A model generated the notes under the pieces. That model was given only the letters and a program-made list of their open reading frames with translations. It had not been told where the DNA came from and did not search any database. Shown piece after piece: positions 1,108 through 51,087 of a DNA stretch of 64,000 bases. This DNA is from an uncultured Thermodesulfobacteriota bacterium (GTDB lineage Bacteria; Desulfobacterota; JBBIRW01): the NCBI GenBank assembly GCA_964505185.1, contig CAZDGM010000006.1:10944-74943 (forward strand), written 5' to 3'. Both the position numbers and the translations under genes were made by a program. Within the stretch, counting starts at the first letter, position 1; each line of letters begins with the position of its first letter.

Positions 1108-1132
1108 AAACTTTTTCCGAAGGAGGGAAGAT

Positions 1133-1339
1133 ATGGATTGTCCATTCTGTAGGAAGGAAATGGAGGTTCAAGGAACATGAAGTGGATCTTTCTGGCGGTG
1201 CCAGGGATGTGGGAGGATATTTTACACAATGGAGGAATTGAAAACCTGCGATATTAAAAATGAAAAAATGATGAAAATAAGGGTGACGGGAATGAATAAA
1301 GGGGGTTTTTATGGCTGGAAAAATTATAATTATAACTGA
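1133..1339 (+). CDS. Candidate small selenoprotein with CxxC-U-CxxC zinc-ribbon-like motif (68 aa if TGA 1178-1180 is read as Sec)
   Basis: RBS AAGGAGGG upstream of ATG 1133. Translation: MDCPFCRKEMEVQGT-U-SGSFWRCQGCGRIFYTMEELKTCDIKNEKMMKIRVTGMNKGGFYGWKNYNYN*. The two CxxC pairs are split by the TGA, a SECIS-like hairpin follows, and the ORF fills the gap between DUF2892 and the MBL gene. Confidence 0.72.
1186..1208 (+). promoter_or_regulatory. Putative bacterial SECIS element for TGA 1178-1180
   Basis: CTGGC-GGT-GCCAG perfect upper stem starting 11 nt after TGA, a U.G pair, a bulged UU and a lower ATC/GAT stem. The G-first loop resembles E. coli fdhF SECIS geometry. Confidence 0.65.
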
Positions 1340-8626: not shown

Positions 8627-9766
8627 TTAAGGGGATATATATTCAAGTGCATTTGTTATTTCATTCTTCACATACGGGTCAACTTCCCTCTTAAGAGTAG
8701 CATTCAGTATGTCTTTTGCCTTACTTCCCCCTATTTTTCCTATTGCCCATGCGGCGTGTGATCTGATAACAGGATCATCATCAACTATTCCCATTGAAAG
8801 CTGTTCAAGGAACATGGGGTTTCTGCTATTTCCCATAACAATTGCTGCATTTCTTAACAACCCCCTTCTTCCAGTCCTGAGAATGGGTGTTCCTTTATAT
8901 TTTTCAATAAATTTTTTTTTATCCATGGAAAATATTCCCTCAAGGTTAAGAACGGGAAATCCCCCGCCTCGAAATGCATGAATATGCGTTTCTATCCTTT
9001 TATTATCAGGGCAGACCTCCTGGCATATATCACACCCGAAGAGCATATTACCCATTGATTCCCTAAGTGCGATTGGAATTGCCCCCCTGTTCTCTATAGT
9101 AAGAAATGAGATGCATCTTGTTGCATCAAGATATCCCTCGTTACTTATGGCCTCTGTCGGGCATGCCTCAATGCATTTCATGCAATCTTTGCAGTTTTTT
9201 TGAATGGGTTTTCCTTCATCGAGCTCCATATCAACGATTAGTTCCGAGAGGAAGATCCATGAACCAAAGGAAGGAGATATTATACATGTATTTTTTCCCA
9301 TCCATCCCAATCCAGCATTAAATGCGAATTCCTTTTCAGGTATGGGACAGGTGTCAACACATATCCTGTACTTAATATTTGAGCCGCTTTCTTTTTTAAT
9401 AAATGATGCAAGCTTCTCTGTCATATCCCGCAGGATTAGATGATAATCAGTTGATGATGCATATCTTGAAATTTTTGCAAAAGGTTCCTTTATTTCAGAA
9501 ACTATCTCATCATAGTTACTATTATAGTAATTTACAGCAAGTGATATTACTGCTTTTCCTTCTGGAAAGAATCTGTGTGGATTCTCCCAGACAGAAAGTG
9601 ATTTCTCAAGAAATTTCATTGAGCCATGACAATTCCATAATAGCCAATCCTTTAAAAGGCTAGATCTTTTTGATGCTGCAAAATGAGTGAAACCTACAAG
9701 GTTAAAACCAATTTCCATTGCGTGTTCTACTACAATATCGCTGGATAGCTTCCTCAAATGAGCCAT
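8627..9766 (-). CDS. queG: Epoxyqueuosine reductase with C-terminal HEAT repeats
   Basis: ISRYA..DYH, VDT.PI.EK, GKNTC, CxxCxxCxxxCP, CISFLTIE, FGCDICQEVCP and RNAAIVMGN motifs. Confidence 0.93.
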   Translation of the reverse strand: MAHLRKLSSDIVVEHAMEIGFNLVGFTHFAASKRSSLLKDWLLWNCHGSMKFLEKSLSVWENPHRFFPEGKAVISLAVNYYNSNYDEIVSEIKEPFAKISRYASSTDYHLILRDMTEKLASFIKKESGSNIKYRICVDTCPIPEKEFAFNAGLGWMGKNTCIISPSFGSWIFLSELIVDMELDEGKPIQKNCKDCMKCIEACPTEAISNEGYLDATRCISFLTIENRGAIPIALRESMGNMLFGCDICQEVCPDNKRIETHIHAFRGGGFPVLNLEGIFSMDKKKFIEKYKGTPILRTGRRGLLRNAAIVMGNSRNPMFLEQLSMGIVDDDPVIRSHAAWAIGKIGGSKAKDILNATLKREVDPYVKNEITNALEYISP

Positions 9767-10959
9767 TATCTTCTTATATTTGCATAATTCAAGACGATTT
9801 CCGATATATCCATCTGAACAATTTTTTCACCTTTTGTTTTTATTCCGCTTTTTGTTGTTCTCTTACACTGGGGGCATGCTGAAACAACAATCTGGGCTCC
9901 AGTTTTTTTAATCTCATCTATGAGATGAAAGTTTATCTTTTCAACTATCGATCTATCAACAATTTCAACATCGCCTCCTCCACCGCAGCAGAAACCACTT
10001 TCTCTATTTTTTGATAACTCTATGAAATCTACATCGGGAATGCTTTTTAAAACGATTCTGGGCTCTTCAAATACACCCATCCCTCTTCCGAGATCGCATG
10101 GATCATGGTATGTTATTTTTCTATTTAAACCTTTAAAAGAGATTTTTCCTTTACGCAAAAGCTCTGCGAAAAACTGTGTTTCATGCAATAGCTCCACATC
10201 ATTTAAATCATAATTTTTGGACCATGTATAAAAGCAGGATGGGCAATTAAAAATCACCCTTTTTGCTCCTATTTTCCTGACCATATTGGTGTTGTGTTTT
10301 ATCAGCTCTTCTGCTTCATCTCGAAATCCTGCTATTATTAAAGGAAATCCGCAGCACCATTCTTCACCACCTAAAAGGGTAACGTCTTCCCCTGATTCTA
10401 TAAGTATTTTCAATAGCGCCTGCGGAATATCCTGTGCAGCAGGTGAGAAGGAGGAGACACATCCGACAAAGTAGACTGTATTTGCCCTGTTTTTTATTAT
10501 ATTTTCCGGTACATCATCCATGTAATCCAGCCATAGTACCCTCTCTTCGTTCGGATAATTGAATATGTTGTGCTGCGTCTTCAAAGCAAGGAGAACAGCT
10601 GAGATATTTGATGGGAAATTTCCTTTTTTAACGAGTTCCTCTCTCAAATACACCACCATATCTCTTGTTCTTATTCCAACCGGACAAACCTGGGTACACC
10701 TTCCACAGAGTGTGCATCTATATGCACCCTCCATAAATTTCTGGATTTCTTCTGATATTTCAGCATCTCGAAGTTTTAGAAAAGAGAAAATGTCAAGGCT
10801 TCTCCTTGATAATCTTTTCCTTCTTTTTATCATCCCCATTACAGCAACAGATTCATCTCTCGTAGCACCAAATGAATCACATACTGATAAGCATAACCCG
10901 CACCTCGTGCAGGCTTCCATTTCTAATATCTTTCTTACCCTTATATCTGTTATTCTCAT
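9766..10959 (-). CDS. HdrD/GlpC-like Fe-S oxidoreductase (2x4Fe-4S plus CCG domains)
   Basis: CTRCGLC, CTLCGRC, CCG motifs (EWCCG, FCCGGGG), YHDPCDLGR and ACPQC. Confidence 0.9.
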   Translation of the reverse strand: MRITDIRVRKILEMEACTRCGLCLSVCDSFGATRDESVAVMGMIKRRKRLSRRSLDIFSFLKLRDAEISEEIQKFMEGAYRCTLCGRCTQVCPVGIRTRDMVVYLREELVKKGNFPSNISAVLLALKTQHNIFNYPNEERVLWLDYMDDVPENIIKNRANTVYFVGCVSSFSPAAQDIPQALLKILIESGEDVTLLGGEEWCCGFPLIIAGFRDEAEELIKHNTNMVRKIGAKRVIFNCPSCFYTWSKNYDLNDVELLHETQFFAELLRKGKISFKGLNRKITYHDPCDLGRGMGVFEEPRIVLKSIPDVDFIELSKNRESGFCCGGGGDVEIVDRSIVEKINFHLIDEIKKTGAQIVVSACPQCKRTTKSGIKTKGEKIVQMDISEIVLNYANIRR

Positions 10960-10960
10960 A

Positions 10961-11728
10961 TTATTTCTCTCTTACCTCTAACATCAGGTTTAGTGATGAG
11001 GAGAAAATATGAAACAGTTTTGTAAAGGGTATAGCAGCAACAAGAGCGATTGATAAAATCGCATGGGTATACCACATGATATTATCCAACTGTTTCCAAT
11101 CTACCTGAGATTTTTTCAAAATCAGTGAAAGACCGTAGCCAATAAAAGAGTAAATTGCAATGTAATCGGGAATATCCTGTATTATCAACCTTATAGCTTC
11201 AACAAAAAAACCGCTTAATGTTATAAGAGCAATCCATGACACAATCAGTATATCTTCTTCTTCTGTTACCAATTCATATGGTTTTTTAAAAAGCCTTCTA
11301 TAAAATGCAATGCAAACTCCTGTTAAAACAAGAAGCCCTCCAATCTCATTGAGTGAGGCAAAAATAGGTGTATCTTTTGGTAGGTTGATAATTCCTCTTT
11401 CATGAAGCATATCACCCAAACTTCCAATGAAAAATAATTCTATAAATCCCCATGCAAAACAAACACTCATCATCCATCTTTGAATGCTTTGTTTAAAAAG
11501 GCGACGCTGGATCAAAACATCAATAAGAAATGCCTTAAAGGTTTTTCTATTAAAGAAAAGGTAGATTATATCAGTAATAAATATTCTAAGATCAGCTACT
11601 TTTACAGGGTTCCCCGTCCCATCAATACTTCCTGAAAGTATCCTTCTAAATCTTAAAATGAGGCCATAGAAGAATATCAATAATGCGGGAATTGCTATTA
11701 TGTAAAAATAAAATATTCTTGTGGACAT
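10961..11728 (-). CDS. NarI/HdrE-like membrane anchor (nitrate reductase gamma family)
   Basis: About 5 TM helices, YTHAIL and IPFTKLFHIF motifs; adjacent to the HdrD-like gene. Confidence 0.82.
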   Translation of the reverse strand: MSTRIFYFYIIAIPALLIFFYGLILRFRRILSGSIDGTGNPVKVADLRIFITDIIYLFFNRKTFKAFLIDVLIQRRLFKQSIQRWMMSVCFAWGFIELFFIGSLGDMLHERGIINLPKDTPIFASLNEIGGLLVLTGVCIAFYRRLFKKPYELVTEEEDILIVSWIALITLSGFFVEAIRLIIQDIPDYIAIYSFIGYGLSLILKKSQVDWKQLDNIMWYTHAILSIALVAAIPFTKLFHIFSSSLNLMLEVREK

Positions 11729-12888: not shown

Positions 12889-14301
12889 TCAGAAAGCAAT
12901 GGTATGAATGGAATCATTCTCTAACTCATCGATCTTTGTTTTTACCTGGATAAATTTATCAAGCGAGTTGTCAAATGGATCATTCATGATAATCTTTCCT
13001 GCCCCAATCTTTTCAAGATTCACATTTGACCAGTCTATTGCAGAAATAAGCCCCTTTTTCTTGAGATATTTTACAATCTCTCCCCTCACACGGGCCCTTG
13101 TGTCCTGCGGGGGTTGATAAATTGCCCTTTCAATTTCCTTATCACTGAAAAATTTTATTACCAAGCCAGCATCTTCAAGCCTGTGATAGATCCCAGCTTC
13201 TGGATCTATATTATGGTAGGATATATCGAGCTGTAGAAGTCTGAAGCCATTGCCAGCCATTCCATTTTTTTTCTTATATTTATCGATCAGATTAAGCTTT
13301 ATAGCCCAGTCAATCCTGTCTGCAAGTCCCATGGGATCGGTCTTTAGCGTTTCAATAAGCTTTTTCCAATCTTCAAGTATTCCTTTAGATTCCTGATCTA
13401 ATCCTTTCTGAATATAAAATTTTTCCGCATATTCAATATATATTTCTTGGATTTCAAGGGGTGTATAATACCTCCCATCATTCATTTCAATTTTGACTTT
13501 GCATGTTAGATCATCGTTTATATCACGTAGTGCTTTCAGTGGATTCCTTATTTCAATATTCTTTTTGAAATATCCATTCTCTACCATATCGAGCACGATC
13601 CCCATTGTTCCCAGTTTTATATATGTGGTAAAGGGAGACATGTTGGAATCACTAAGAACTATATGGAGCCTTCTGTAAAGAAGGGGATCGGAGAGCGGTT
13701 CCTCTCGTGTATTTATAATGGGTCTGTCCCCCGTTGTTGATCCAGAGTAGACCTTTTCAATAAAATTCGCCCTCTGGGAGATTTTAAATCTTACATTGCC
13801 TCCATTCATATGGAGCCTTCCTGCTCCAGTAAATACAGTTCTCGTTACAAGGAATGGTATAATTTTCTCTGCCAGGTATGAAAAATTAACATCCTGTCTT
13901 ATCAGATAATTTTCATGACATCCGTATGTGTTCCCTATGGAGTCAGTATTATTTTTAAATATCTGAAATTTACCTATTAACCCTTCTTTTTCAAAAGATT
14001 CCTGAACTTTTTGGGCAATATTGTTCAATATCCTTTCTCCGGCCACATCATAGAGAACTGCATCCCTTACACTTGAACACTCAGGCGTTCCATATTCTGG
14101 ATGGCAGCCCGTGTCCTGATAAAGCCTCCCTCCATTTTCGAGGAATATGTTATAAATAGTTTCATTGGGGCAAAGGCTTTCAAAAAGAGCCTTTATTAGA
14201 TATTCACTGAACAGCGCCCTTTTTCCTGCAGGAGAAGAAAAGGGGCTCACATAATAGATTGCAAATTCCGTCTCTAATCCATAAATCCTTTTTTCATGCA
14301 T
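12889..14301 (-). CDS. pafA: Pup/UBact-protein ligase, PafA family; start reassigned to ATG 14301
   Basis: RIYGLETEF, FLENGGRLYQDTGCHPEYGTPEC, FKNNTDSIGNTYGCHENYL, RRLHIVLSDSN, LDISYHNI and TRARVRG match PafA rather than Dop. The listed N-terminal 36 aa overlap a terminator. Confidence 0.88.
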   Translation of the reverse strand: MHEKRIYGLETEFAIYYVSPFSSPAGKRALFSEYLIKALFESLCPNETIYNIFLENGGRLYQDTGCHPEYGTPECSSVRDAVLYDVAGERILNNIAQKVQESFEKEGLIGKFQIFKNNTDSIGNTYGCHENYLIRQDVNFSYLAEKIIPFLVTRTVFTGAGRLHMNGGNVRFKISQRANFIEKVYSGSTTGDRPIINTREEPLSDPLLYRRLHIVLSDSNMSPFTTYIKLGTMGIVLDMVENGYFKKNIEIRNPLKALRDINDDLTCKVKIEMNDGRYYTPLEIQEIYIEYAEKFYIQKGLDQESKGILEDWKKLIETLKTDPMGLADRIDWAIKLNLIDKYKKKNGMAGNGFRLLQLDISYHNIDPEAGIYHRLEDAGLVIKFFSDKEIERAIYQPPQDTRARVRGEIVKYLKKKGLISAIDWSNVNLEKIGAGKIIMNDPFDNSLDKFIQVKTKIDELENDSIHTIAF

Positions 14302-14380
14302 GATGAAACCCACCAATTGGAAATGCATAAATTGTGCCATTGAATTTTGGTATAGATAGTCGGTATTATGGATAAAAATA

Positions 14381-14406
14381 AAAAAGGAGGGAAAACCCTC
14401 CTTTTT
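14381..14406 (-). terminator. Rho-independent terminator after ppsA (potentially bidirectional)
   Basis: AAAAAGGAGGG-AAAA-CCCTCCTTTTT perfect inverted repeat with T tracts, about 40 nt downstream of the ppsA stop. Confidence 0.85.
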
Positions 14407-14443
14407 CAATTTTATAATTTTTCAAAATTGAAACCTGCCCTCT

Positions 14444-36512: not shown

Positions 36513-37082
36513 TCAATTGATTTCTTTTCCCATTTTAAACGCCAATATATTCACCTCTTTATATTTTTCAGGGACCCTCTTTTCTATTGCCTTTATCCAT
36601 GCATTTTCATCGAAAGGAATATGATTGGATGCAGCTCCAAGCAGGACTATATTTACCGCCCTGGAATTTCCTGCCTGTTGAGCTATCTTAATTCCATCTA
36701 CAAATATCGCCCCTGATGAAGAAAGTATTTCATCAATATTTTCCGGATATTTTTCCTTTCCAGCAAGAACAGAGAGTGGATTGATTTTCATCCTGTTAAC
36801 AATAATTTTTCCATTCTTCTTTAAATAGCTCAGATATCGGAGACCTTCCAACTCTTCAAGTGCAATTATAAGATCACAAAAACCCTTTTCAACCAGCGGG
36901 GAAAAAACCTTATTCCCAAATTTAACATGAGATATAACACTTCCTCCCCTCTGTGACATTCCATGTATTTCTGCCTGTTTGACATCATAACCGGATATTA
37001 TTGCTGCTTCTGCAATGATATCACTGCACAGTATTATACCCTGCCCACCAACGCCAGTTATGATAATGCCCATCTGATTCAT
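36513..37082 (-). CDS. iorB: Indolepyruvate:ferredoxin oxidoreductase beta subunit; start at ATG 37082 overlapping the upstream stop
   Basis: GVGGQG, EIHGMSQRGGSV and NIVLLGA motifs. Confidence 0.93.
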   Translation of the reverse strand: MNQMGIIITGVGGQGIILCSDIIAEAAIISGYDVKQAEIHGMSQRGGSVISHVKFGNKVFSPLVEKGFCDLIIALEELEGLRYLSYLKKNGKIIVNRMKINPLSVLAGKEKYPENIDEILSSSGAIFVDGIKIAQQAGNSRAVNIVLLGAASNHIPFDENAWIKAIEKRVPEKYKEVNILAFKMGKEIN

Positions 37083-39595
37083 TAATGTATCTGTGCACAT
37101 ATTTCAATTGCCCCAAACTTGCATAGCTGCTGACATACCGTGCACCCCCTGCAAAGATCAGGATCAATGCTTACATATTTTTTACCATCCCCATCAGTTT
37201 TAAATTCCATTGCAATGCATCCGGCCTTTAGACATACACCGCATCCCGTGCATTTTTCCTTTATCACCGTCATTTTTTCAAACCAGATATTCTCAACAAG
37301 GACACAGGGCATCTCAACAATAATTACAGAGGGCTCATCTATATTTATTTCCCTTTTGATTATTTCTTCAGCCTCCGATATATTGTAGCTATTTATCTTA
37401 CTTACTCTTTTTATACCCACAGCCCTGACAATCGCCTCTATATCAATCTTGATTGTTTCCTCATTCTTTGCTGTTTTTCCTGTGCCAGGATGTGCCTGTC
37501 CTCCTGTCATAGCAGTTGTTCTATTATCAAGGACGATGATTGTTGAACTCCCTTTATTGTATGCTATATCTATAAGTGATGTTATACCTGAGTGGAAAAA
37601 TGTTGAATCTCCAATAACAGCAACCACTTTACCCCTTGCATCCTTTCCCATAGCCTTTTCTATTCCATGTGCCATACCTATGCTTGCACCCATGCATATA
37701 CAGCTATGGAGGGCTTCAATAGGAGAAAGGGCTGCAAGAGTATAACAACCAATATCACCTGATACAAACACTTTAAGCTTCCTCAGTGCTGTAAAAATAG
37801 CCCTGTGTGAACAACCCGGACATAGTGATGGATGCCTTACCGGTATATTTAGGTTCATTTCCTGAATTATTGACCTATCCGTATCATTTGATCTTAGACC
37901 AAAGGATTTACGAAGTAGGTCGGGTGTATATTCACCACACCTCGGTAAAATATCCTTGCCTACAACAGCTATACCCATTTCTTTTATCTGCTCCTCTAAA
38001 AAAGGATCGAGCTCCTCAATCACCAAAATTTTTTCAACTTCCGAGGCAAATTTTCGGATCAAATTATGTGGGATTGGATAAACCATTCCAAGTTTAAGAT
38101 ATGATGCATCAGGAAATACCTCTTTTGCATGATTGTAACAGATACCACTTGTTATGATACCAATTTTTCTATTTCCCCATTCAATACGGTTAATTGACAT
38201 TGTCTCAGCAGCAGTTGAAAGCTTCCTTATTCTATCCTCAACTATTGGATGTCTTAATCTTGCAAATGCAGGCATCATCACATATTTTGGAATATTTTTT
38301 TCTGGTTCAATTTTTGAATTCCCCTCTTCTCTATCCTCAAGTGTTACTATTCCCTTTGAATGTGAAATCCTTGTTGTTGTCCTTAATAATACAGGTGTAT
38401 CAAATTGCTCACTTATTTTAAAAGCTATCTTAACAAATTCTTTCGCTTCCATGCTATCAGATGGCTCAAGCATGGGTATCTTTGCAAACTTTGCATAGTT
38501 CCTATTATCCTGTTCATTCTGCGAACTATAAAGGTTGGGATCATCCGCTGTAACTATTACAAGACCACCCTTTATCCCTGTATATGAGAGTGTAAAAAGC
38601 GGATCAGAGGCAACATTAAGTCCGACATGTTTCATTGAAACAAGTGATCTTGCCCCAGCGATGGAAGAACCTATTGCAACTTCGAGAGCAACCTTTTCAT
38701 TTGGAGACCATTCGCAGTATACACCTTTATATTTTGTAAGAGCCTCAAGAATCTCTGTGCTTGGAGTTCCAGGATAGGCTGTTGCTACCTTTACATCTGC
38801 CTCATAAGCTCCTCTTGCAATTGCCTCGTTTCCAGAAAGTATAATCTTTGGTTTTTCTACTTTATAATCGGAAATTTTGTATCCCATATATGCCCTTTTC
38901 AATTTCTCCTTATCAAAAATTTCGTCAGAATTTCCCTGCATAACAATCCTTCCTGTTTCCATTACATATGCCCTTTTTGAAACACTCAAAGCAAGATTTG
39001 CATTCTGTTCAACAAGAAATATGGTCTTACCCTCCATTGAAAGTTTTTTAATTATATCGAATAACTCCCTTACAATCAGCGGTGACAGGCCCATTGATGG
39101 TTCATCCATTAATAGAAGTTTTGGTCTTGCCATCAATGCCCTTGCAAGTGCAAGCATCTGCTGTTCTCCACCAGAAAGCGTGCCTGCAATCTGTTTGTAT
39201 CTCTCTCTTAATATAGGAAAGAGATTCATTACATAATCCATATCTGCCTTTACCTCTGCATATTTTTTCTTTCTCAATCTCAAATAAGCACCAAGCTCAA
39301 GGTTTTCCATCACCGTCATATTGCAGAATATCTGCCTACCCTCAGGGACGTGAATTATACCAAGCTCAACGATCCTGTCAGGACTTTTATTCTGTATCTC
39401 TTGTCCCATGAAGATAATCTTTCCTTTCGCGGCCCTGATAAGACCTGAGATTGTATTTATAAGTGTTGTTTTGCCAGCACCATTTGCCCCTATAACTGCT
39501 ACAATCTCCCCCTCGTCAACATGGAGGTTTATCTCCTTTAAAGCCTCTATTTCGCCGTAATATGTGCTTACTCCGTTCAGTTTAAGAATGCTCAC
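37082..39595 (-). CDS. Fusion of LivF-type ABC ATPase (aa 1 to ~238) and indolepyruvate oxidoreductase alpha subunit IorA
   Basis: N-terminal GANGAGKTT, LSGGEQQM, DEPS and RAYMG; then LSGNEAIARG, YPGTPSTE, NEKVA, CPGCSH, GDIGCY, GDSTFFHSG and a C-terminal ferredoxin, in one 837-aa frame. Confidence 0.88.
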   Translation of the reverse strand: MSILKLNGVSTYYGEIEALKEINLHVDEGEIVAVIGANGAGKTTLINTISGLIRAAKGKIIFMGQEIQNKSPDRIVELGIIHVPEGRQIFCNMTVMENLELGAYLRLRKKKYAEVKADMDYVMNLFPILRERYKQIAGTLSGGEQQMLALARALMARPKLLLMDEPSMGLSPLIVRELFDIIKKLSMEGKTIFLVEQNANLALSVSKRAYVMETGRIVMQGNSDEIFDKEKLKRAYMGYKISDYKVEKPKIILSGNEAIARGAYEADVKVATAYPGTPSTEILEALTKYKGVYCEWSPNEKVALEVAIGSSIAGARSLVSMKHVGLNVASDPLFTLSYTGIKGGLVIVTADDPNLYSSQNEQDNRNYAKFAKIPMLEPSDSMEAKEFVKIAFKISEQFDTPVLLRTTTRISHSKGIVTLEDREEGNSKIEPEKNIPKYVMMPAFARLRHPIVEDRIRKLSTAAETMSINRIEWGNRKIGIITSGICYNHAKEVFPDASYLKLGMVYPIPHNLIRKFASEVEKILVIEELDPFLEEQIKEMGIAVVGKDILPRCGEYTPDLLRKSFGLRSNDTDRSIIQEMNLNIPVRHPSLCPGCSHRAIFTALRKLKVFVSGDIGCYTLAALSPIEALHSCICMGASIGMAHGIEKAMGKDARGKVVAVIGDSTFFHSGITSLIDIAYNKGSSTIIVLDNRTTAMTGGQAHPGTGKTAKNEETIKIDIEAIVRAVGIKRVSKINSYNISEAEEIIKREINIDEPSVIIVEMPCVLVENIWFEKMTVIKEKCTGCGVCLKAGCIAMEFKTDGDGKKYVSIDPDLCRGCTVCQQLCKFGAIEICAQIH

Positions 39596-45746: not shown

Positions 45747-46949
45747 TTATCGCTGGTAGTTTTCTAAAATTATTGCCATACCCTGACCTCCTCCTATACA
45801 TAAAGCACATAAACCATAACGAGCATTTCTCCTCTTCATTTCATAAAGAAGGGTTATAACAAGTCTTATACCTGTTGCAGCAACAGGGTGTCCCAGTGAT
45901 ATTGCACCGCCATTGACATTCAGGATATTTCTATCGATACCAAGTTCTCTTTCTGCATAAACCACAACAGCAGCAAATGCTTCGTTAATCTCAAACAGAT
46001 CTATATCGGATATATTCATGCCGGTCTTTTTTAAGACCTCCCTTGTTGCGGGAACAGGGCCTATTCCCATTATTGAGGGTTCAACTCCAACAATTGCCCA
46101 GTCAACAATCCTTCCCATGGGTTTAAGATTCAACTGAACAGCCCTTTTTTCTGATGTAACGAGTAAAGCAGCCCCGGCGTCATTAATACCTGATGCATTC
46201 CCCGCAGTTATAGTTCCATCCTTTTTAAAAACAGGAGGAAGCTTTGATAATTTTTCAATTGTTGTTTCAGGCTTTATATATTCATCAATGTCAAAAATCT
46301 TTGTCTCCCCCTTCTTTCCCGTTTTAACCTCAACCGGGATGATCTCATCCTTAAGAAACCCATTCTTTGTTGCATTCCAGGCCCTCATCTGACTCATATA
46401 TGCATATTCATCCTGTGCTTCCCTGGAGATTTTGAATCTTTCAACAAGATTCTCTGCAGTTTCACCCATATGTTCTCCATTGAAATCGTGATAGTAATGG
46501 AAAATGGCATCTTCCAGCTGGGCATGTCCTATTCTGTAACCATTCCATCTTACTCCACCATAGAGTAGATAAGGTGCCTGACTGAAGCTCTCAGAACCAC
46601 CTGCAATAACAACATCTGCATCCCCAAGGATTATATCCTTTGCTGCCATAGCAATTGCGCTCATCCCAGTCCCACATAATCTGTTTATTGTTATTGCCCT
46701 TGAACTTACTGGGAGTCCCGCCTTGATACCTATGGCTCTTGCCTGGAAGGCACCGAGCCTGTCTGTTTGTGCCATATTGCCCATGATTATACTGTCTACA
46801 TATGCGGGATCTATACCTGATCGCTCGATACACCCCTTTACCGCGATCACTCCCAGATCCACCGAACTGAAGTCTTTAAGGGATCCGCCAAAATTTCCAA
46901 TTGCTGTTCTTACTCCTCCTATGAGAACGATATCACCTTTTGATAACAT
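45747..46949 (-). CDS. Acetyl-CoA acyltransferase (thiolase), second paralogue
   Basis: NRLCGTG, NEAFA, GGAISLGHP and LCIGGGQG motifs. Confidence 0.94.
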   Translation of the reverse strand: MLSKGDIVLIGGVRTAIGNFGGSLKDFSSVDLGVIAVKGCIERSGIDPAYVDSIIMGNMAQTDRLGAFQARAIGIKAGLPVSSRAITINRLCGTGMSAIAMAAKDIILGDADVVIAGGSESFSQAPYLLYGGVRWNGYRIGHAQLEDAIFHYYHDFNGEHMGETAENLVERFKISREAQDEYAYMSQMRAWNATKNGFLKDEIIPVEVKTGKKGETKIFDIDEYIKPETTIEKLSKLPPVFKKDGTITAGNASGINDAGAALLVTSEKRAVQLNLKPMGRIVDWAIVGVEPSIMGIGPVPATREVLKKTGMNISDIDLFEINEAFAAVVVYAERELGIDRNILNVNGGAISLGHPVAATGIRLVITLLYEMKRRNARYGLCALCIGGGQGMAIILENYQR

Positions 46950-46954
46950 AGTTC

Positions 46955-47743
46955 CTACCTCCCTTTGAACTCTGGCTTCCTCTTTTCTATAAAGGCCCTC
47001 AGACCCTCTTTCGCATCATCTGTTTTAAAGACTTCTATAAATGCCTCTTTCTCTATTCTTAATCCCGTGTATATATCATGCTGAAGCCCTTGATTTATTG
47101 CCCTTTTTATAAGACCGATCGATTTTGTTGCACCCTTTGTTATGTCTCTTGCAAACTCAATGCTCTTTTTAATTAGATCTTCTGGGGGGAATACCTTATC
47201 TACAATTCCTATCTGGAGCGCCTCTCTGGGTGTTAATCTCTTACCAAAAATGATGAGTTCTGATGCCTTCGAAATTCCTATTAGTCTTGGAAGCCTCTGT
47301 GTTCCTCCAGCTCCCGGAAGTATCCCGAGCGTAACCTCTGGAAGTCCGATATAAATTTTTTCTCTATCAGCCATAAATCGGAAATCGCAAGCCAGTGCAA
47401 GTTCACATCCACCTCCCAGTGCATGTCCGTTGATTGCCGCTATTATGATCTTTGGCATTTCCATCAACTTGTTAAAGCATGTTTGAAATTTATCTGTTAC
47501 TTTTTCAGCAATATTTTCACTCATCTCTCCCAGCATTTTTATATCAGCTCCCGCAATGAATATATTGTCTATACCTCCCGTAATAATCATTACCTTACCA
47601 TCTTCACTATTTGAGAAGATATCAAATATTCGCGAAAGCTCTTCTATCAGTTCCATATCGAGTGCATTTGCTGGTGGTTTGTTGATTCGAACAATGAATA
47701 CACCATCTTCAGCGTTTAAATTTAAGAATTTGAAATCATTCAT
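46955..47743 (-). CDS. Enoyl-CoA hydratase/isomerase
   Basis: AGADI, GGGCE, LPEVTLG and PGAGGTQRL motifs. Confidence 0.93.
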   Translation of the reverse strand: MNDFKFLNLNAEDGVFIVRINKPPANALDMELIEELSRIFDIFSNSEDGKVMIITGGIDNIFIAGADIKMLGEMSENIAEKVTDKFQTCFNKLMEMPKIIIAAINGHALGGGCELALACDFRFMADREKIYIGLPEVTLGILPGAGGTQRLPRLIGISKASELIIFGKRLTPREALQIGIVDKVFPPEDLIKKSIEFARDITKGATKSIGLIKRAINQGLQHDIYTGLRIEKEAFIEVFKTDDAKEGLRAFIEKRKPEFKGR

Positions 47744-48530
47744 GATAGCCCCCCTGTTTCTTTTGTGAATTCATATCCTCCTGTGCAATTAGTGCAGCTC
47801 CAAATGCCCCAATTATTTGAGGTTCATCAGGAACAATAATTTCAACGCCAAGTTCCTGCGCAAGAACCTCCCTCATCGCCTTGTTTTTTGCTACTCCACC
47901 TGTAAACAAGACTGGTTTTTCAATCCTTACCCTCTTTGCAAGCGATGCAATCTTTGAAGCAATACTTTTATGGACGCCAGCAATAATTTCAGCAATCTCC
48001 TTTCCTGAGGCAATATGGGATATAACCTCAGATTCAGCAAAAACTGTACATGTGCTGCTGATTGAAACTGGAGTTTTTCCACTTATCTCGGTATTTCCCA
48101 GCTCATCCAGTGACATCTCCAGAATCGATGCCATTACTTCAAGAAACCTTCCTGTTCCGGCTGCACACTTATCATTCATGATGAAATCCCTGACCCTTCC
48201 ATTCTCATCGATTTTTAAAACTTTGCTGTCCTGACCGCCAATATCAATGACTGTTCTTACTGATGGAAATAGTTTATGCGCCCCTCTTGCTATACAGGTT
48301 ATCTCCGTAATAGTTCTATCCACTCCAGGAATGTTTCTTCTCCCATATCCTGTGCCAACTATCCACCCGATCATTTCTCCTGTTTTTTCCACAACCTCTT
48401 TCTTTATCTCTTCGGACATAATTTTTTGCTCGGGCTTTGTTTTGAGGATTCGATTGTATATTGCTAATCCGTTTTTCATTGCAACTACTTTGGTCATTAT
48501 TGAGCCTATATCTATACCGACTGCGATCAT
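47736..48530 (-). CDS. ATP-dependent activase (HgdC/BzdQ/BcrD family)
   Basis: GIDIGS, TGYGR, IDIGGQDSK, CAAGTGRF, CTVFAESE and GGVA motifs. Confidence 0.93.
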   Translation of the reverse strand: MIAVGIDIGSIMTKVVAMKNGLAIYNRILKTKPEQKIMSEEIKKEVVEKTGEMIGWIVGTGYGRRNIPGVDRTITEITCIARGAHKLFPSVRTVIDIGGQDSKVLKIDENGRVRDFIMNDKCAAGTGRFLEVMASILEMSLDELGNTEISGKTPVSISSTCTVFAESEVISHIASGKEIAEIIAGVHKSIASKIASLAKRVRIEKPVLFTGGVAKNKAMREVLAQELGVEIIVPDEPQIIGAFGAALIAQEDMNSQKKQGGYHE

Positions 48531-49738
48531 TTTAAGCCATCTATAGTTTCAAGAAATGATTCTATTCTTGTTTTAATAGACTCCAATGAGTAATTGCCTG
48601 AATCGCTGTGGTCTGCCTCAATTATAAGGGATGGAATACCTCTTTCATCCATAATTTTTTTCTTAATTTCATGCTGGATCAGGGAATATGGTTTGCAGCT
48701 CCTGTCAGAATGCATTACGATTCCATCCACACTGTATTCATCAACCAGCTGTTTTATTAACTTATAGCGCCTATCAATACCTACATTCAAAAATCCCGAT
48801 GCACAGAAATACGCATAGCTCCTTAAAGGATTATCCCTATCCACAATTCCCATAAATTCAGGACCCCAGGCTTGTGTATATGTATCAGTTACAAAGATTG
48901 CACCGTATTGCTCCAGATAGTCAAATAATTTTAAATCATACCATACAGGAAGATTATCCCAGAGAAGGCGGTATTTCTCATTATGATCTGGATCGGGATT
49001 ACTGAGCCGTTCATAAACTTCATTATTTAGAGATATCAGGTGTCTTAATCCTTCCTCTGTTCCGCGAAGCGCTACCATTGGAAACATATGTGTAAATACA
49101 TCACCGGCATTTATTGGTGAAGGGATATTCTTCCTCGCATTTAGAACCTCAGACCATAGTGACTTTGTTTCGTTTGAAATTTCTGTAACTTCAATTAGCC
49201 TTTCTATATCAAACCTCTTTCCCGTTATGTTTTCGACAGATTCTATCATTTTTCTAAACTGCTTCTCAGTATAATCAAGATGCAATGTGTCCGACTCATA
49301 TTGAACAATTGGCGTATCTATAACAATAGTTGGCACATTTTTGAAATAACTAACAGCCCTCCACCATGTAAGCACAGTTATACAGGAATTTGTTGCACAT
49401 ACCTGAATTGTAGGAGGAGGAATCTCTCCCAGTGGACCTTTACCGCTTAAAACCGTTGCCAAATTAACCCTCGCATAGGAGCAAAGATCCTGAGAAAAGC
49501 CAAATGATTCAGCAATTCGTGATAATTCCGTAGCAACTTTTCTTGCACCACAAAGTGCTCCGTAATTTTCGGGATAGAAGGGAAAAACATCCATAGCCCA
49601 GAACAATTCACATGGAATACCTACATTCAGCCATGCAACAGGTCTTTTTTCATTAGAATATCTGAACATCTTTTTATAGTATTCATCTATAAGATTTTTA
49701 AGATTAATCGTTGTCTGGAGCCTCTTTCCCATCATCAA
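48527..49738 (-). CDS. 2-hydroxyacyl-CoA dehydratase / benzoyl-CoA reductase subunit (HgdA/BzdO/BcrB-like)
   Basis: PENYGALCG, DLCSY, NSC, RSCKPY and EAD motifs. Confidence 0.88.
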   Translation of the reverse strand: MMMGKRLQTTINLKNLIDEYYKKMFRYSNEKRPVAWLNVGIPCELFWAMDVFPFYPENYGALCGARKVATELSRIAESFGFSQDLCSYARVNLATVLSGKGPLGEIPPPTIQVCATNSCITVLTWWRAVSYFKNVPTIVIDTPIVQYESDTLHLDYTEKQFRKMIESVENITGKRFDIERLIEVTEISNETKSLWSEVLNARKNIPSPINAGDVFTHMFPMVALRGTEEGLRHLISLNNEVYERLSNPDPDHNEKYRLLWDNLPVWYDLKLFDYLEQYGAIFVTDTYTQAWGPEFMGIVDRDNPLRSYAYFCASGFLNVGIDRRYKLIKQLVDEYSVDGIVMHSDRSCKPYSLIQHEIKKKIMDERGIPSLIIEADHSDSGNYSLESIKTRIESFLETIDGLK

Positions 49739-50853
49739 TTTCCTTGATTTGAGAATATACCTTCAACAAATGCTTCAATTCTGTTTGCTATTTGATCTTT
49801 TCCTGACAATCTATGATCAACTTCAAGTAAAATGACAGGTATACCTTCATTGTTTAGTTTGTTTTTGATAATAGGAAATTCCATTGCATCATTATCACAG
49901 AATCTCATAAGTAGAAATATTACACCTTTTGCTTCTGCTTCCCTGATTTCACTTAGTAAATGTTCATGTCTTCTTTCGGTTGGATGTTTTGTTGAACATG
50001 GAATCTTATTTATATATCTTTTACTGATCGAATACAGACAACCTTTTTCATGATTTTCCTCAATATTTCCGATAAAATATCTTGTTCCAAATGCCAGATC
50101 ATCCGAGACCACATCAATATCATACTTGTCTAACATTTCAAAAAGCTCAACAGAATCATTCATCATGCCGGATATTATAACAGGTATCTTTTTGGATTCC
50201 GCGGGCTTAGATAATCTTCTTTCTTGAATAAATTTTTCAATTTCTCCAATAAATTCGATGGGATCCATCAATCCAGCAGATATGATGAGGGATATATATT
50301 CCTTATTGTTCATGTTGATAAGCTTTTTCTTCCTCAGGTCATTCAATTTTTTTAAGATGTCCCTCTTCCTGTTAAATACCATTACCGAATTAATTAATTC
50401 CGACTCTGAAACGCTTCTACCTGATTTTTTTTCCAGGAAATAGCAGAGCTGCCTTAATTCTGTTAAAAGATATTCAATGGCATCCTCGCTTATAATAGAA
50501 GGATATTTTATGTAATATACCCAGCTGTTGTAATTCTCCTGTCTCAATACTTCGTAAATACCTCTGATGGAGTCACAGTATCTTGTGAATACATAACCCT
50601 CAATGGGTGTAAAGTCTCCTCTTAATGCCTGTTCAAGTATTGATCTTGCAAAATTGCATGCGAATGATGCAATTACATTGTCGGTCTCTGTAAGGTCCAT
50701 ATCCTTTCCCGTTAAACGGATGGGATGGAATCCGTATGAATAAGCGATTTCTTCCGGGAAATAGGGGTCCATGTATCCAATAAGCCTTTTTCCTTCATTG
50801 TGTAATCGATGGATGTAGCTACAAGGGTCAAGCGCTATTTCGGCAAACTTCAT
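49735..50853 (-). CDS. 2-hydroxyacyl-CoA dehydratase / benzoyl-CoA reductase subunit (HgdB/BzdN/BcrC-like); start reassigned to ATG 50853
   Basis: PEEIA..G..P, ACNF, YCDS, SDDLAFG and FCD motifs. The listed N-terminal extension contains the sigma54 promoter; GGGGA RBS precedes 50853. Confidence 0.86.
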   Translation of the reverse strand: MKFAEIALDPCSYIHRLHNEGKRLIGYMDPYFPEEIAYSYGFHPIRLTGKDMDLTETDNVIASFACNFARSILEQALRGDFTPIEGYVFTRYCDSIRGIYEVLRQENYNSWVYYIKYPSIISEDAIEYLLTELRQLCYFLEKKSGRSVSESELINSVMVFNRKRDILKKLNDLRKKKLINMNNKEYISLIISAGLMDPIEFIGEIEKFIQERRLSKPAESKKIPVIISGMMNDSVELFEMLDKYDIDVVSDDLAFGTRYFIGNIEENHEKGCLYSISKRYINKIPCSTKHPTERRHEHLLSEIREAEAKGVIFLLMRFCDNDAMEFPIIKNKLNNEGIPVILLEVDHRLSGKDQIANRIEAFVEGIFSNQGN

Positions 50854-50898
50854 GGATACATCCCCATTCTTAAAAATAAAACGCCATTTATTTAGAAA

Positions 50899-50914
50899 AG
50901 CAATTGATGTGCCA
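50899..50914 (-). promoter_or_regulatory. sigma54 promoter of the reductase/dehydratase-paaK-liv-ior operon
   Basis: Minus strand TGGCACATCAATTGCT is an exact TGGCAC-N5-TTGCW consensus, 46 bp upstream of ATG 50853. Confidence 0.88.
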
Positions 50915-51087
50915 TTTCTTATTATTCCTTTCACCCTTTGCAATTTTTTCCTTTTGAATAACAATAACTTTTTTTATTAGGTTATGATTAAAACATTCAA
51001 AATTATTTTAATCCATCAGTAATGTTTAATATTATAGACATTTTAAGGGAAAAGTAAAATCTTTTTAGAAGGATGTGGTCCTTAGAA

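Follow-up and report, generated by a model that had tools for sequence, protein, structure and literature searches.

A small selenoprotein designated OS_HP3 was described in the metagenome of Olavius symbionts (Zhang and Gladyshev 2007; PMC1976440), and a 'hypothetical protein DW' carrying the motif GxU, in which U stands for selenocysteine (Sec), was reported by deep-Sep in 2025 (PMC12013277). A review published in 2026 assigns both proteins to the NCBIfam family NF041197, 'dual CXXC motif small (seleno)protein' (PMC13188914). Here, we compare with these proteins a locus found near the start of a 64,000-nucleotide stretch of DNA, hereafter the window, from an uncultured Thermodesulfobacteriota bacterium (contig CAZDGM010000006.1 of assembly GCA_964505185.1, positions 10,944 to 74,943 of the forward strand). 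An earlier note made from the letters of the window had proposed that this locus encodes a small selenoprotein with a selenocysteine insertion sequence (SECIS) inside its open reading frame (ORF), and that the protein might correspond to a curated family of CxxC-Sec-CxxC proteins. The central proposal is supported by the comparative test presented below, and the suspected family does exist: it is NF041197, known from OS_HP3 in 2007 and from protein DW in 2025. We consider it likely that positions 1133 to about 1299 of the forward strand are a real translated gene whose product is a cytoplasmic selenoprotein of about 55 residues, divergently related to OS_HP3 and to the 'dual CXXC motif small (seleno)protein' family. 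Since this family has been known since 2007, the locus is not a new kind of system; it is an unannotated, divergent relative of modest novelty.

The anatomy of the gene can be read directly from the sequence. A Shine-Dalgarno-like element, AAGGAGGG (1120-1127, forward strand), has its GGAGG core 6 nt 5' of an ATG start codon (1133-1135), which opens the first part of the coding sequence (1133-1177, MDCPFCRKEMEVQGT). These 15 codons read M-D-C-P-F-C-R-K-E-M-E-V-Q-G-T, from M1 to T15, and hold the first CxxC knuckle, with C3 at 1139-1141 and C6 at 1148-1150. They are followed by an in-frame TGA (1178-1180), the proposed Sec16 codon, which is the same TGA codon in the close relatives and in the family members discussed below. 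Beyond it the same frame resumes with SGSFWRCQGCGRIFY... and remains open until a TGA at 1337-1339; its conserved core, S17 to K45 (1181-1267, SGSFWRCQGCGRIFYTMEELKTCDIKNEK), contains the second knuckle, CxxC-G, with C23 at 1199-1201, C26 at 1208-1210 and G27. The resulting layout is C3xxC6, U16, C23xxC26, exactly the pattern that had been announced, and direct reading likewise verified, base for base, the proposed ribosome-binding site, the ATG at 1133, the TGA at 1178-1180 and the continuing frame.

Conservation across the UGA was followed in a small clade of relatives. The only close relative found among species-representative genomes, L001, comes from a metagenome-assembled genome (MAG) labelled Deltaproteobacteria and shares 94% DNA identity with the window. 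Further loci were traced through the protein encoded next to it, a hydrolase of the metallo-beta-lactamase (MBL) fold: L245, in a Logan assembly, with an MBL protein 96% identical to that of the window; L241 and L242, also in Logan assemblies, with an MBL protein 79% identical; and L243, on a 2.7-kb contig assigned to an NCBI MAG with the label Aenigmatarchaeota. These loci all share the order YgaP-like gene, gap, MBL gene, with the same ATG, TGA and hairpin in the gap and no called gene there, so that the gene, which the earlier note described as missed by ORF callers, is missing in the same way from the public relatives. The Shine-Dalgarno-like AAGGAGGG is kept in L001 and L245 and takes the weaker form GGAAAGGG in L241. 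The TGA stands at codon 16 in L001, L245, L241, L242 and L243, the L241 protein reading MDCPFCKKDMEVHGT-U-SESFWRCQECGRIFYTVEEVKGCSIKKEVNKDNGSKEDVNSNRGF.

Substitutions in these sequences follow the reading frame on both sides of the UGA. Over the four clade lineages, the variable sites of the first part of the coding sequence are distributed 0/2/6 over the three codon positions. Past the UGA, the comparison of the window with L241 over codons 17-44 yields 19 substitutions, distributed 4/4/11 by codon position (binomial P = 0.024), with no insertion or deletion; the changed codons comprise eight synonymous and seven non-synonymous ones. When codons 1-15 are included, the distribution becomes 4/5/17 (P = 0.0008), again with no insertion or deletion. 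The cysteine codons and Gly27 are unchanged after the UGA throughout the clade, and no start codon is conserved there, M33 of the window being a valine in L241. Judged by this pattern of substitutions, the frame that follows the UGA is under purifying selection. Two questions raised beforehand, whether the residues after the TGA are conserved and whether position 16 aligns with TGA or with cysteine, thereby received answers: the former are conserved, with a third-position bias and no insertion or deletion between the window and L241, and the latter is TGA in all four clade lineages and in at least about 50 family members and cysteine in two database homologues, P0121 and P0125.

Several further searches returned little. 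The read-through peptide found no match in the protein database, which is expected because gene callers truncate at the UGA. One metagenome scan with a strict clade pattern recovered one Caldimicrobium-type member of the family and four chance matches, and no new clade member. A search of the 30 post-UGA residues against 1.8 billion representative proteins matched eukaryotic repeat proteins of the C2H2 type and other knuckle repeats, and nothing else. As a separate observation, the contig of L243 (JAWCPQ010000181.1, GCA_039090655.1), labelled as a Candidatus Aenigmatarchaeota archaeon, is almost identical to the bacterial-type loci L241 and L242; its 2.7 kb carry an efflux pump of the resistance-nodulation-division (RND) type, the YgaP-like gene, the Sec gene and the MBL gene, and it is probably a mis-binned bacterial contig.

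At the level of the family, the best NCBIfam match of the read-through protein is NF041197 (E = 3.3e-5), the next match having an E-value of 0.12. The core C-x2-C-x9-U-x6-C-x2-C-G aligns without gaps with the published members listed in the deep-Sep supplement, and neither an alignment of 7 nor one of 46 sequences shows any variation at C3, C6, U16, C23, C26 or G27, the larger one being composed of the window protein and 45 recovered sequences (3 from its clade and 42 from outside it). With a degenerate DNA pattern of the skeleton, at least about 50 more members with the UGA were retrieved from genomes of Desulfobacterota and Thermodesulfobacteria. This census is a lower bound: generic patterns gave many GC-rich chance matches, which were filtered by composition and ORF continuity. 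The recovered members fall into three subgroups, one with R-T-U and a ..RCDRL tail (the OS_HP3 type), one with G-R-U and a YRDQIE-W helix (the DW type) and one with G-T-U in Thermodesulfobacteria. Homology at the family level comes with Sec/Cys pairs, cysteine occupying the Sec position in P0121 and P0125. Three other database homologues, P0122, P0123 and P0124, have tryptophan in place of Sec in their deposited sequences (..GRWANA..); of these, P0123 is nearly identical to the loci L098 and L044, where that codon is TGA. The tryptophan of these entries probably reflects a gene caller that translated TGA as Trp, which would constitute a systematic misannotation of the family.

The window protein nevertheless stands apart from the bulk of its relatives. 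A profile built from the non-clade members, at least about 50 in number, gives it 32 bits, nearly all of which come from residues 2-29, and hmmsearch finds no positive match in the window protein past about profile position 30. Its identity to non-clade members amounts to 16-27%, and in place of a C-terminal helix of the YRDQIE-W or LDD-LEE-LA--RCDRL type it has YTMEELKTCDIKNEK. On these sequence comparisons, the window gene belongs to a divergent sister clade of the NF041197 family, because its score of 24 bits is under the curated cutoff of 40, it has no C-terminal helix motif and it carries its hairpin in a different register.

This SECIS-like hairpin, CUGGC-GGU-GCCAG, lies at 1192-1204 of the forward strand, with a stem formed by 1192-1196 and 1200-1204 and a GGU loop at 1197-1199. 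Its five Watson-Crick pairs are lengthened by G-U pairs to a stem spanning about 1189-1207. Folding of the RNA from 1178 to 1225 gives a minimum free energy (MFE) structure of -11.4 kcal/mol that covers 1178-1224, with the UGA at its base. The hairpin that had been pointed out 11 nt past the TGA is thus part of the MFE fold; the bulged U's attributed to it are absent from that fold, and the flanking U's are engaged in the G-U pairs that extend the stem. The model of bacterial SECIS elements (bSECIS) rests on four criteria, namely an apical loop of 3-9 nt with a G in its first two positions, a distance of 16-37 nt from UGA to loop and an MFE of at most -7.5 kcal/mol (PMC13188914). The window hairpin agrees with all four, having a GGU loop, a spacing of 16 nt and an MFE of -11.4 to -12.3 kcal/mol for a stem of 5-8 bp. 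Escherichia coli requires the SECIS stem to start 11 nt past the UGA (PMC11431864), and the stem in the window begins at this very distance. The hairpin is invariant in the four clade lineages, and in its stem extension the change of G1206 to A keeps the pair with U1190. Synonymous variation is not significantly reduced in the SECIS zone, where 2 of 11 third positions vary, against 15 of 32 elsewhere (P = 0.15). There is no T-run on the 3' side of the hairpin, and therefore it is not a terminator.

Hairpins with G-containing loops occur across the family in the zone that corresponds to that of the window. In 31 of 57 distinct family sequences they share one register, in which the stem is built from both Cys codons of the second CxxC and the loop occupies nt 27-29 after the U of the UGA. 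This majority register displays compensatory changes at pair 26-30 (GC, CG, AU and GU) and at pair 20-36 (GC, CG and UA) among the family loci L009-L223, examined over nt 1-45 after the UGA. Eight Thermodesulfobacteria sequences form instead GGUAAG-GUGY-CUUACC with the loop at 21-24, and the clade of the window has a register of its own with the loop at 20-22. One small selenoprotein family hence uses at least three SECIS hairpin registers within the same 11 codons, which makes it a clear example of the plasticity of bacterial SECIS elements.

Compared with each of the described systems, the window gene shares the general plan and departs from it in particular features. Like OS_HP3, it encodes about 55 residues with two CxxC motifs, a UGA placed 9 residues past the first and 6 before the second, a glycine after the second CxxC and a SECIS-like hairpin within the ORF, and both occur in anaerobes of the sulfate-reducer type. 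OS_HP3 differs by its R-T-U triplet and its conserved acidic helix ending in ..RCDRL, whereas the window protein has G-T-U and no such tail; the hairpin loop lies 23 nt after the UGA in OS_HP3 and 16 nt after it in the window, and the gene neighbourhoods are not the same. The GxU motif is common to protein DW and the window protein. The Thermodesulfobacteria relatives (L046, L056, L097, L145, L157, L171, L182 and L223) come closer still in having G-T-U, with CPFC in addition in L182, and their hairpins lie early, with the loop at 17 nt from the UGA and the Cys23 codon at the centre of the hairpin, near the register of the window. The DW and Thermodesulfobacteria proteins, in contrast, follow the first CxxC with GG-x-A and Sec with A-x-A-x-V, and have a helix of the form Y-[RE]-[DE]-x-I-E-x-[WLM], none of which is found in the window protein, and their hairpins are offset by 1-2 nt from that of the window and cannot be superimposed on it. 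With the E. coli fdhF-type and consensus bSECIS elements, the window hairpin shares its location in the coding sequence right after the UGA, a small apical loop starting with GG or GU, a stem that starts 11 nt past the UGA and an extended fold with the UGA at its base. Its stem is much shorter than the fdhF-type stem, with no bulged U predicted and no Rfam match, and it would be a putative binding element for SelB.

The end of the coding sequence deserves a separate comment. The window contains a run of six A's at 1263-1268 where L001 (5328-5334) and L245 have seven, and its frame is shifted accordingly after K45. As literally read, the tail is MMKIRVTGMNKGGFYGWKNYNYN (1268-1339, forward strand); it stops at the TGA of 1337-1339, overlaps the ribosome-binding site and start of the next gene and brings the protein to 68 aa, the last 23 of which are unconserved, this tail being absent from every relative. 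If the run were A7, the frame of the relatives would be read, with a tail ..DENKGDGNE at 1270-1299 of the forward strand and a TAA stop at 1297-1299; applied to the window, that frame gives ...IKNEKNDENKGDGNE, a protein of 55 aa. L001 ends in NDKNKGDGDE* and L245 in NDENEGDGK*, the clade relatives measure 54-62 aa and the NF041197 profile has 53 positions. The comparison suggests that the true length is probably about 55 aa rather than 68 aa. The 68 aa previously given for the protein are accordingly a faithful reading of the window, and probably a wrong length, produced by a frameshifted tail. The A6 run could be a homopolymer sequencing error or a real frameshift; in both cases it lies past the conserved core. 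Either length, 68 aa as read or the 54-62 aa of the relatives, falls within the range of about 50-70 aa of small stand-alone proteins.

The fold was approached through P0121, a Cys-form relative about 20-30% identical to the window protein, whose structure was modelled with AlphaFold2 (AF2). The model, with a mean predicted local distance difference test (pLDDT) score of 65 and values of 72-86 in the core, contains a strand at 19-23, a turn G24-R25-C26-A27 in which C26 takes the place of Sec, strands at 30-33 and 39-41 and a helix at 42-50; the turn with the Sec position falls between the two knuckles. Foldseek retrieved for it zinc ribbons of the TFIIS/Rpb9/RPC10 type as top matches, all with E > 0.1, and profile searches of the PDB returned, with E-values of about 0.01-0.07, the ribbons of Rpb12, L37ae and LysW, which are generic matches at the level of the knuckle. 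More broadly, generic zinc ribbons in the PDB, in Pfam and in a library of 1.8 billion proteins match only at this level. By transfer of the P0121 model through the gapless core alignment, we place U16, with moderate confidence, in a turn G14-T15-U16 at the tip of a beta-hairpin, away from the four cysteines. Sec had previously been thought to join the two CxxC half-sites into one unit; this is probably not the case, since the P0121 model puts the Sec position in the turn. The TFIIS/Rpb9/RPC10 zinc ribbons offer a parallel of design only, two CxxC knuckles holding a beta-hairpin with functional residues at its tip; they have no detectable sequence homology with the window protein, and their tip residues are acidic and work in the active site of RNA polymerase. 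A rubredoxin was also considered and rejected: rubredoxins match only the 'x-W/V-x-C-x-x-C-G' knuckle (profile positions 20-34, E 0.002-0.2), a single knuckle, and Pfam finds no rubredoxin domain in the window protein.

A number of observations weigh against a translated UGA in a divergent relative of OS_HP3. The NF041197 score of 24.0 bits, obtained with cysteine in place of Sec, is below the curated cutoff of 40, and the similarity to this family rests largely on the skeleton of cysteines and glycine. The energy of the hairpin is unexceptional (z = -1.3 relative to shuffled sequences), no Rfam model, whether of SECIS or of another family, matches the locus, and within the clade the hairpin shows no double compensatory change because it never varies there. 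Among the 2622 TGA triplets of the window, 7.6% precede a hairpin that satisfies the published bSECIS criteria and 3.3% do so with a stem of at least 6 bp. No Cys form of the clade was found by the protein-database search, the strict-pattern metagenome scan or the search of 1.8 billion representatives. The 64 kb of the window contain no tRNA-Sec, a scan of them for other TGA-interrupted genes gave no candidate, and no SelA, SelB or SelD domain was detected in the 50 of its 58 long ORFs that were scanned. Finally, the structural argument is drawn from a relative only about 20-30% identical, modelled with a mean pLDDT of 65 and matched by Foldseek at E > 0.1. Given a base rate of 3-8%, the fit to bSECIS criteria alone is weak evidence, necessary and not sufficient; the observation exceeds chance because relatives conserve the UGA together with its hairpin and the frame beyond it, and because the Cys/Sec spacing recurs in at least about 50 other genomes. 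An alternative genetic code was rejected, TGA being an ordinary stop in the window, where it ends 23 of the 58 long ORFs.

The same conservation bears on three other explanations of the locus. If the UGA were an ordinary stop, the product would be a peptide of at most 15 residues and the sequence conserved downstream would be a non-coding or regulatory RNA in the leader of the MBL gene. Gene calls in the four public relatives do agree with this, leaving the interval from the YgaP-like to the MBL gene empty; TGA is also the most frequent stop codon of the window, and an invariant hairpin would suit a regulatory element. Yet the substitutions after the UGA pile up at third codon positions of the frame, the codon changes are synonymous in about half of the cases, 28 codons are crossed without insertion or deletion, the Cys codons and Gly27 do not vary, the peptide encoded past the UGA can be aligned with the second half of a protein family whose members extend across the UGA, and a hairpin without a T-run is no terminator, all of which makes an ordinary stop very unlikely. 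A decaying pseudogene is hardly credible: it would derive from a Cys zinc-ribbon gene by a TGY-to-TGA nonsense mutation, with the shifted tail as a second lesion, and Cys forms do exist in the family, just as the window does lack one nucleotide of the A-run relative to L001 and L245. Against such decay, the TGA is common to lineages whose MBL proteins are 79% identical and whose frame is still under purifying selection, TGA at this position is the rule in at least about 50 other species, and the deletion falls beyond the conserved core, within a tail of low complexity that varies from lineage to lineage. It is also conceivable, and in our opinion unlikely, that the UGA is read through in a small zinc ribbon that arose by convergence and is unrelated by descent to NF041197 and OS_HP3. 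A score under the curated cutoff, the 16-27% identity to non-clade members, the dissimilar C-terminal helix region and the distinct hairpin register and neighbourhood would all be explained in this way. The x2-x9-x6-x2-G spacing is nevertheless identical and gapless, the G-T-U triplet is common to the Thermodesulfobacteria subgroup, of which L182 also has CPFC, NF041197 is the top NCBIfam match with E = 3e-5 where the next has 0.12, and generic zinc ribbons of the PDB, Pfam and the 1.8-billion-protein library match at the knuckle level only.

We thus return to a translated selenoprotein gene of the NF041197 kind, for which the following course of events may be proposed. The ribosome would initiate at ATG 1133, and the hairpin at 1192-1204, with its GGU loop in the coding sequence, would recruit SelB with Sec-tRNA(Sec) at the UGA of 1178-1180, where selenocysteine would be inserted in place of termination. 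In the predicted product, C3, C6, C23 and C26 would form two zinc-ribbon knuckles around one metal ion, and the ten residues from C6 to U16 together with the seven from U16 to C23 would make a beta-hairpin with its turn at G14-T15-U16. The selenol would then be exposed at the tip of a rigid scaffold and reactive towards a partner or a small soft ligand, candidates for which are persulfide sulfur, a thiol or disulfide and a thiophilic metal. The gene itself would be co-transcribed in a string composed of an RND efflux pump, the YgaP-like protein, the selenoprotein, the MBL-fold hydrolase and a DsrE-like protein.

This string is visible in the window on the forward strand. Its first element is a gene for an RND efflux permease of the AcrB type (1-916; Pfam ACR_tran, E = 1.8e-24), of which the start of the window leaves only the 3' end; the full-length gene in L241 and L242 encodes 1077 aa and is preceded by genes for an outer membrane efflux protein (OEP) and a membrane fusion protein (MFP). 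Identification of this pump as a heavy-metal pump was not supported, generic multidrug models outscoring CusA and CzcA. The gene directly upstream of the selenoprotein gene (913-1107; Pfam PF11127, E = 4e-11) encodes a small YgaP-like/DUF2892 protein with two transmembrane segments and is syntenic in all clade loci. Directly downstream lies the gene of the MBL-fold metallo-hydrolase (1311-2144; Pfam Lactamase_B), homologues of which are named at their source 'MBL fold metallo-hydrolase' or '7,8-dihydropterin-6-yl-methyl-4-(beta-D-ribofuranosyl)aminobenzene 5'-phosphate synthase', so that the selenoprotein gene occupies the gap of 203 nt between 1107 and 1311. A DsrE/TusD-like protein of the sulfur-relay family follows (2330-2680; Pfam DsrE, E = 1.4e-20), syntenic in L241, L242 and L245. 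No promoter-like or terminator-like site was found on the forward strand from 600 to 1399, an interval that begins in the 3' portion of the RND gene and ends shortly after the start of the MBL gene; this is consistent with one transcript. The order conserved in the clade is OEP, MFP, RND permease, YgaP-like, selenoprotein gene, MBL, DsrE, DUF2238, PAP2 and QueC. L241 and L242 have in addition a gene for a thioesterase of the 4HBT/YbgC type between MBL and DsrE (6954-7412 in L241); it is absent from L245 and from the window, where a gap of 185 nt separates the two genes (2144-2330).

Clustering of the neighbourhoods of at least about 50 family loci revealed no neighbour in common with the window and no family-wide context. 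One OS_HP3 subgroup adjoins ArgJ, an auxin-efflux-type carrier and TruA, and one DW subgroup adjoins NrfD, 4Fe-4S and tetratricopeptide repeat (TPR) genes. The gene string of the window is a weak pointer towards the handling of sulfur or metals, drawn from the neighbour genes of one clade. A bolder proposal, which we regard as speculative and rather unlikely, is that the clade is a functionally distinct offshoot in a conserved operon, whose tip selenol would carry or sense persulfide sulfur, selenium or a thiophilic metal between membrane components and the DsrE and MBL enzymes; if true, it would open a first way to the function of a family that has offered none since 2007. The conserved operon of the clade and the predicted Sec at the tip of the hairpin offer in any event two testable leads on the function of the family. 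The locus has a value for annotation as well: the gene is absent from all public gene calls of the locus and lies under the cutoff of the curated model of its own family, and it shows where the boundary of the NF041197 model could be widened.

Several other genes were noted in the remainder of the window. A protein of the Pup-ligase family (PafA/Dop type) is encoded at 12889-14409 on the reverse strand (E = 3e-135), and the window also encodes DsrMK-like proteins (9766-11728) and enzymes of an anaerobic type, among them aldehyde:ferredoxin oxidoreductase. Genes for pupylation rarely occur beyond Actinobacteria and a handful of further phyla, and this gene may bear on the true taxonomy of the source. 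An ORF of 837 aa at 37082-39595 on the reverse strand carries an ABC-transporter ATPase domain at its N terminus, joined to POR_N, TPP_enzyme_C and 4Fe-4S domains of the indolepyruvate/pyruvate:ferredoxin oxidoreductase type. Either this is an unusual fusion, or two neighbouring genes have been merged into a single reading frame from an upstream GTG. Lastly, the reverse-strand region 45747-50964 encodes two dehydratase subunits of the HGD-D type, an activator ATPase of the BcrAD/BadFG type, an enoyl-CoA hydratase and a thiolase, and adjoins genes for an acyl-CoA ligase, a 3-hydroxyacyl-CoA dehydrogenase and a branched-chain amino-acid ABC transporter; it looks like an ordinary module for the anaerobic fermentation of 2-hydroxyacyl-CoA or aromatic acids.

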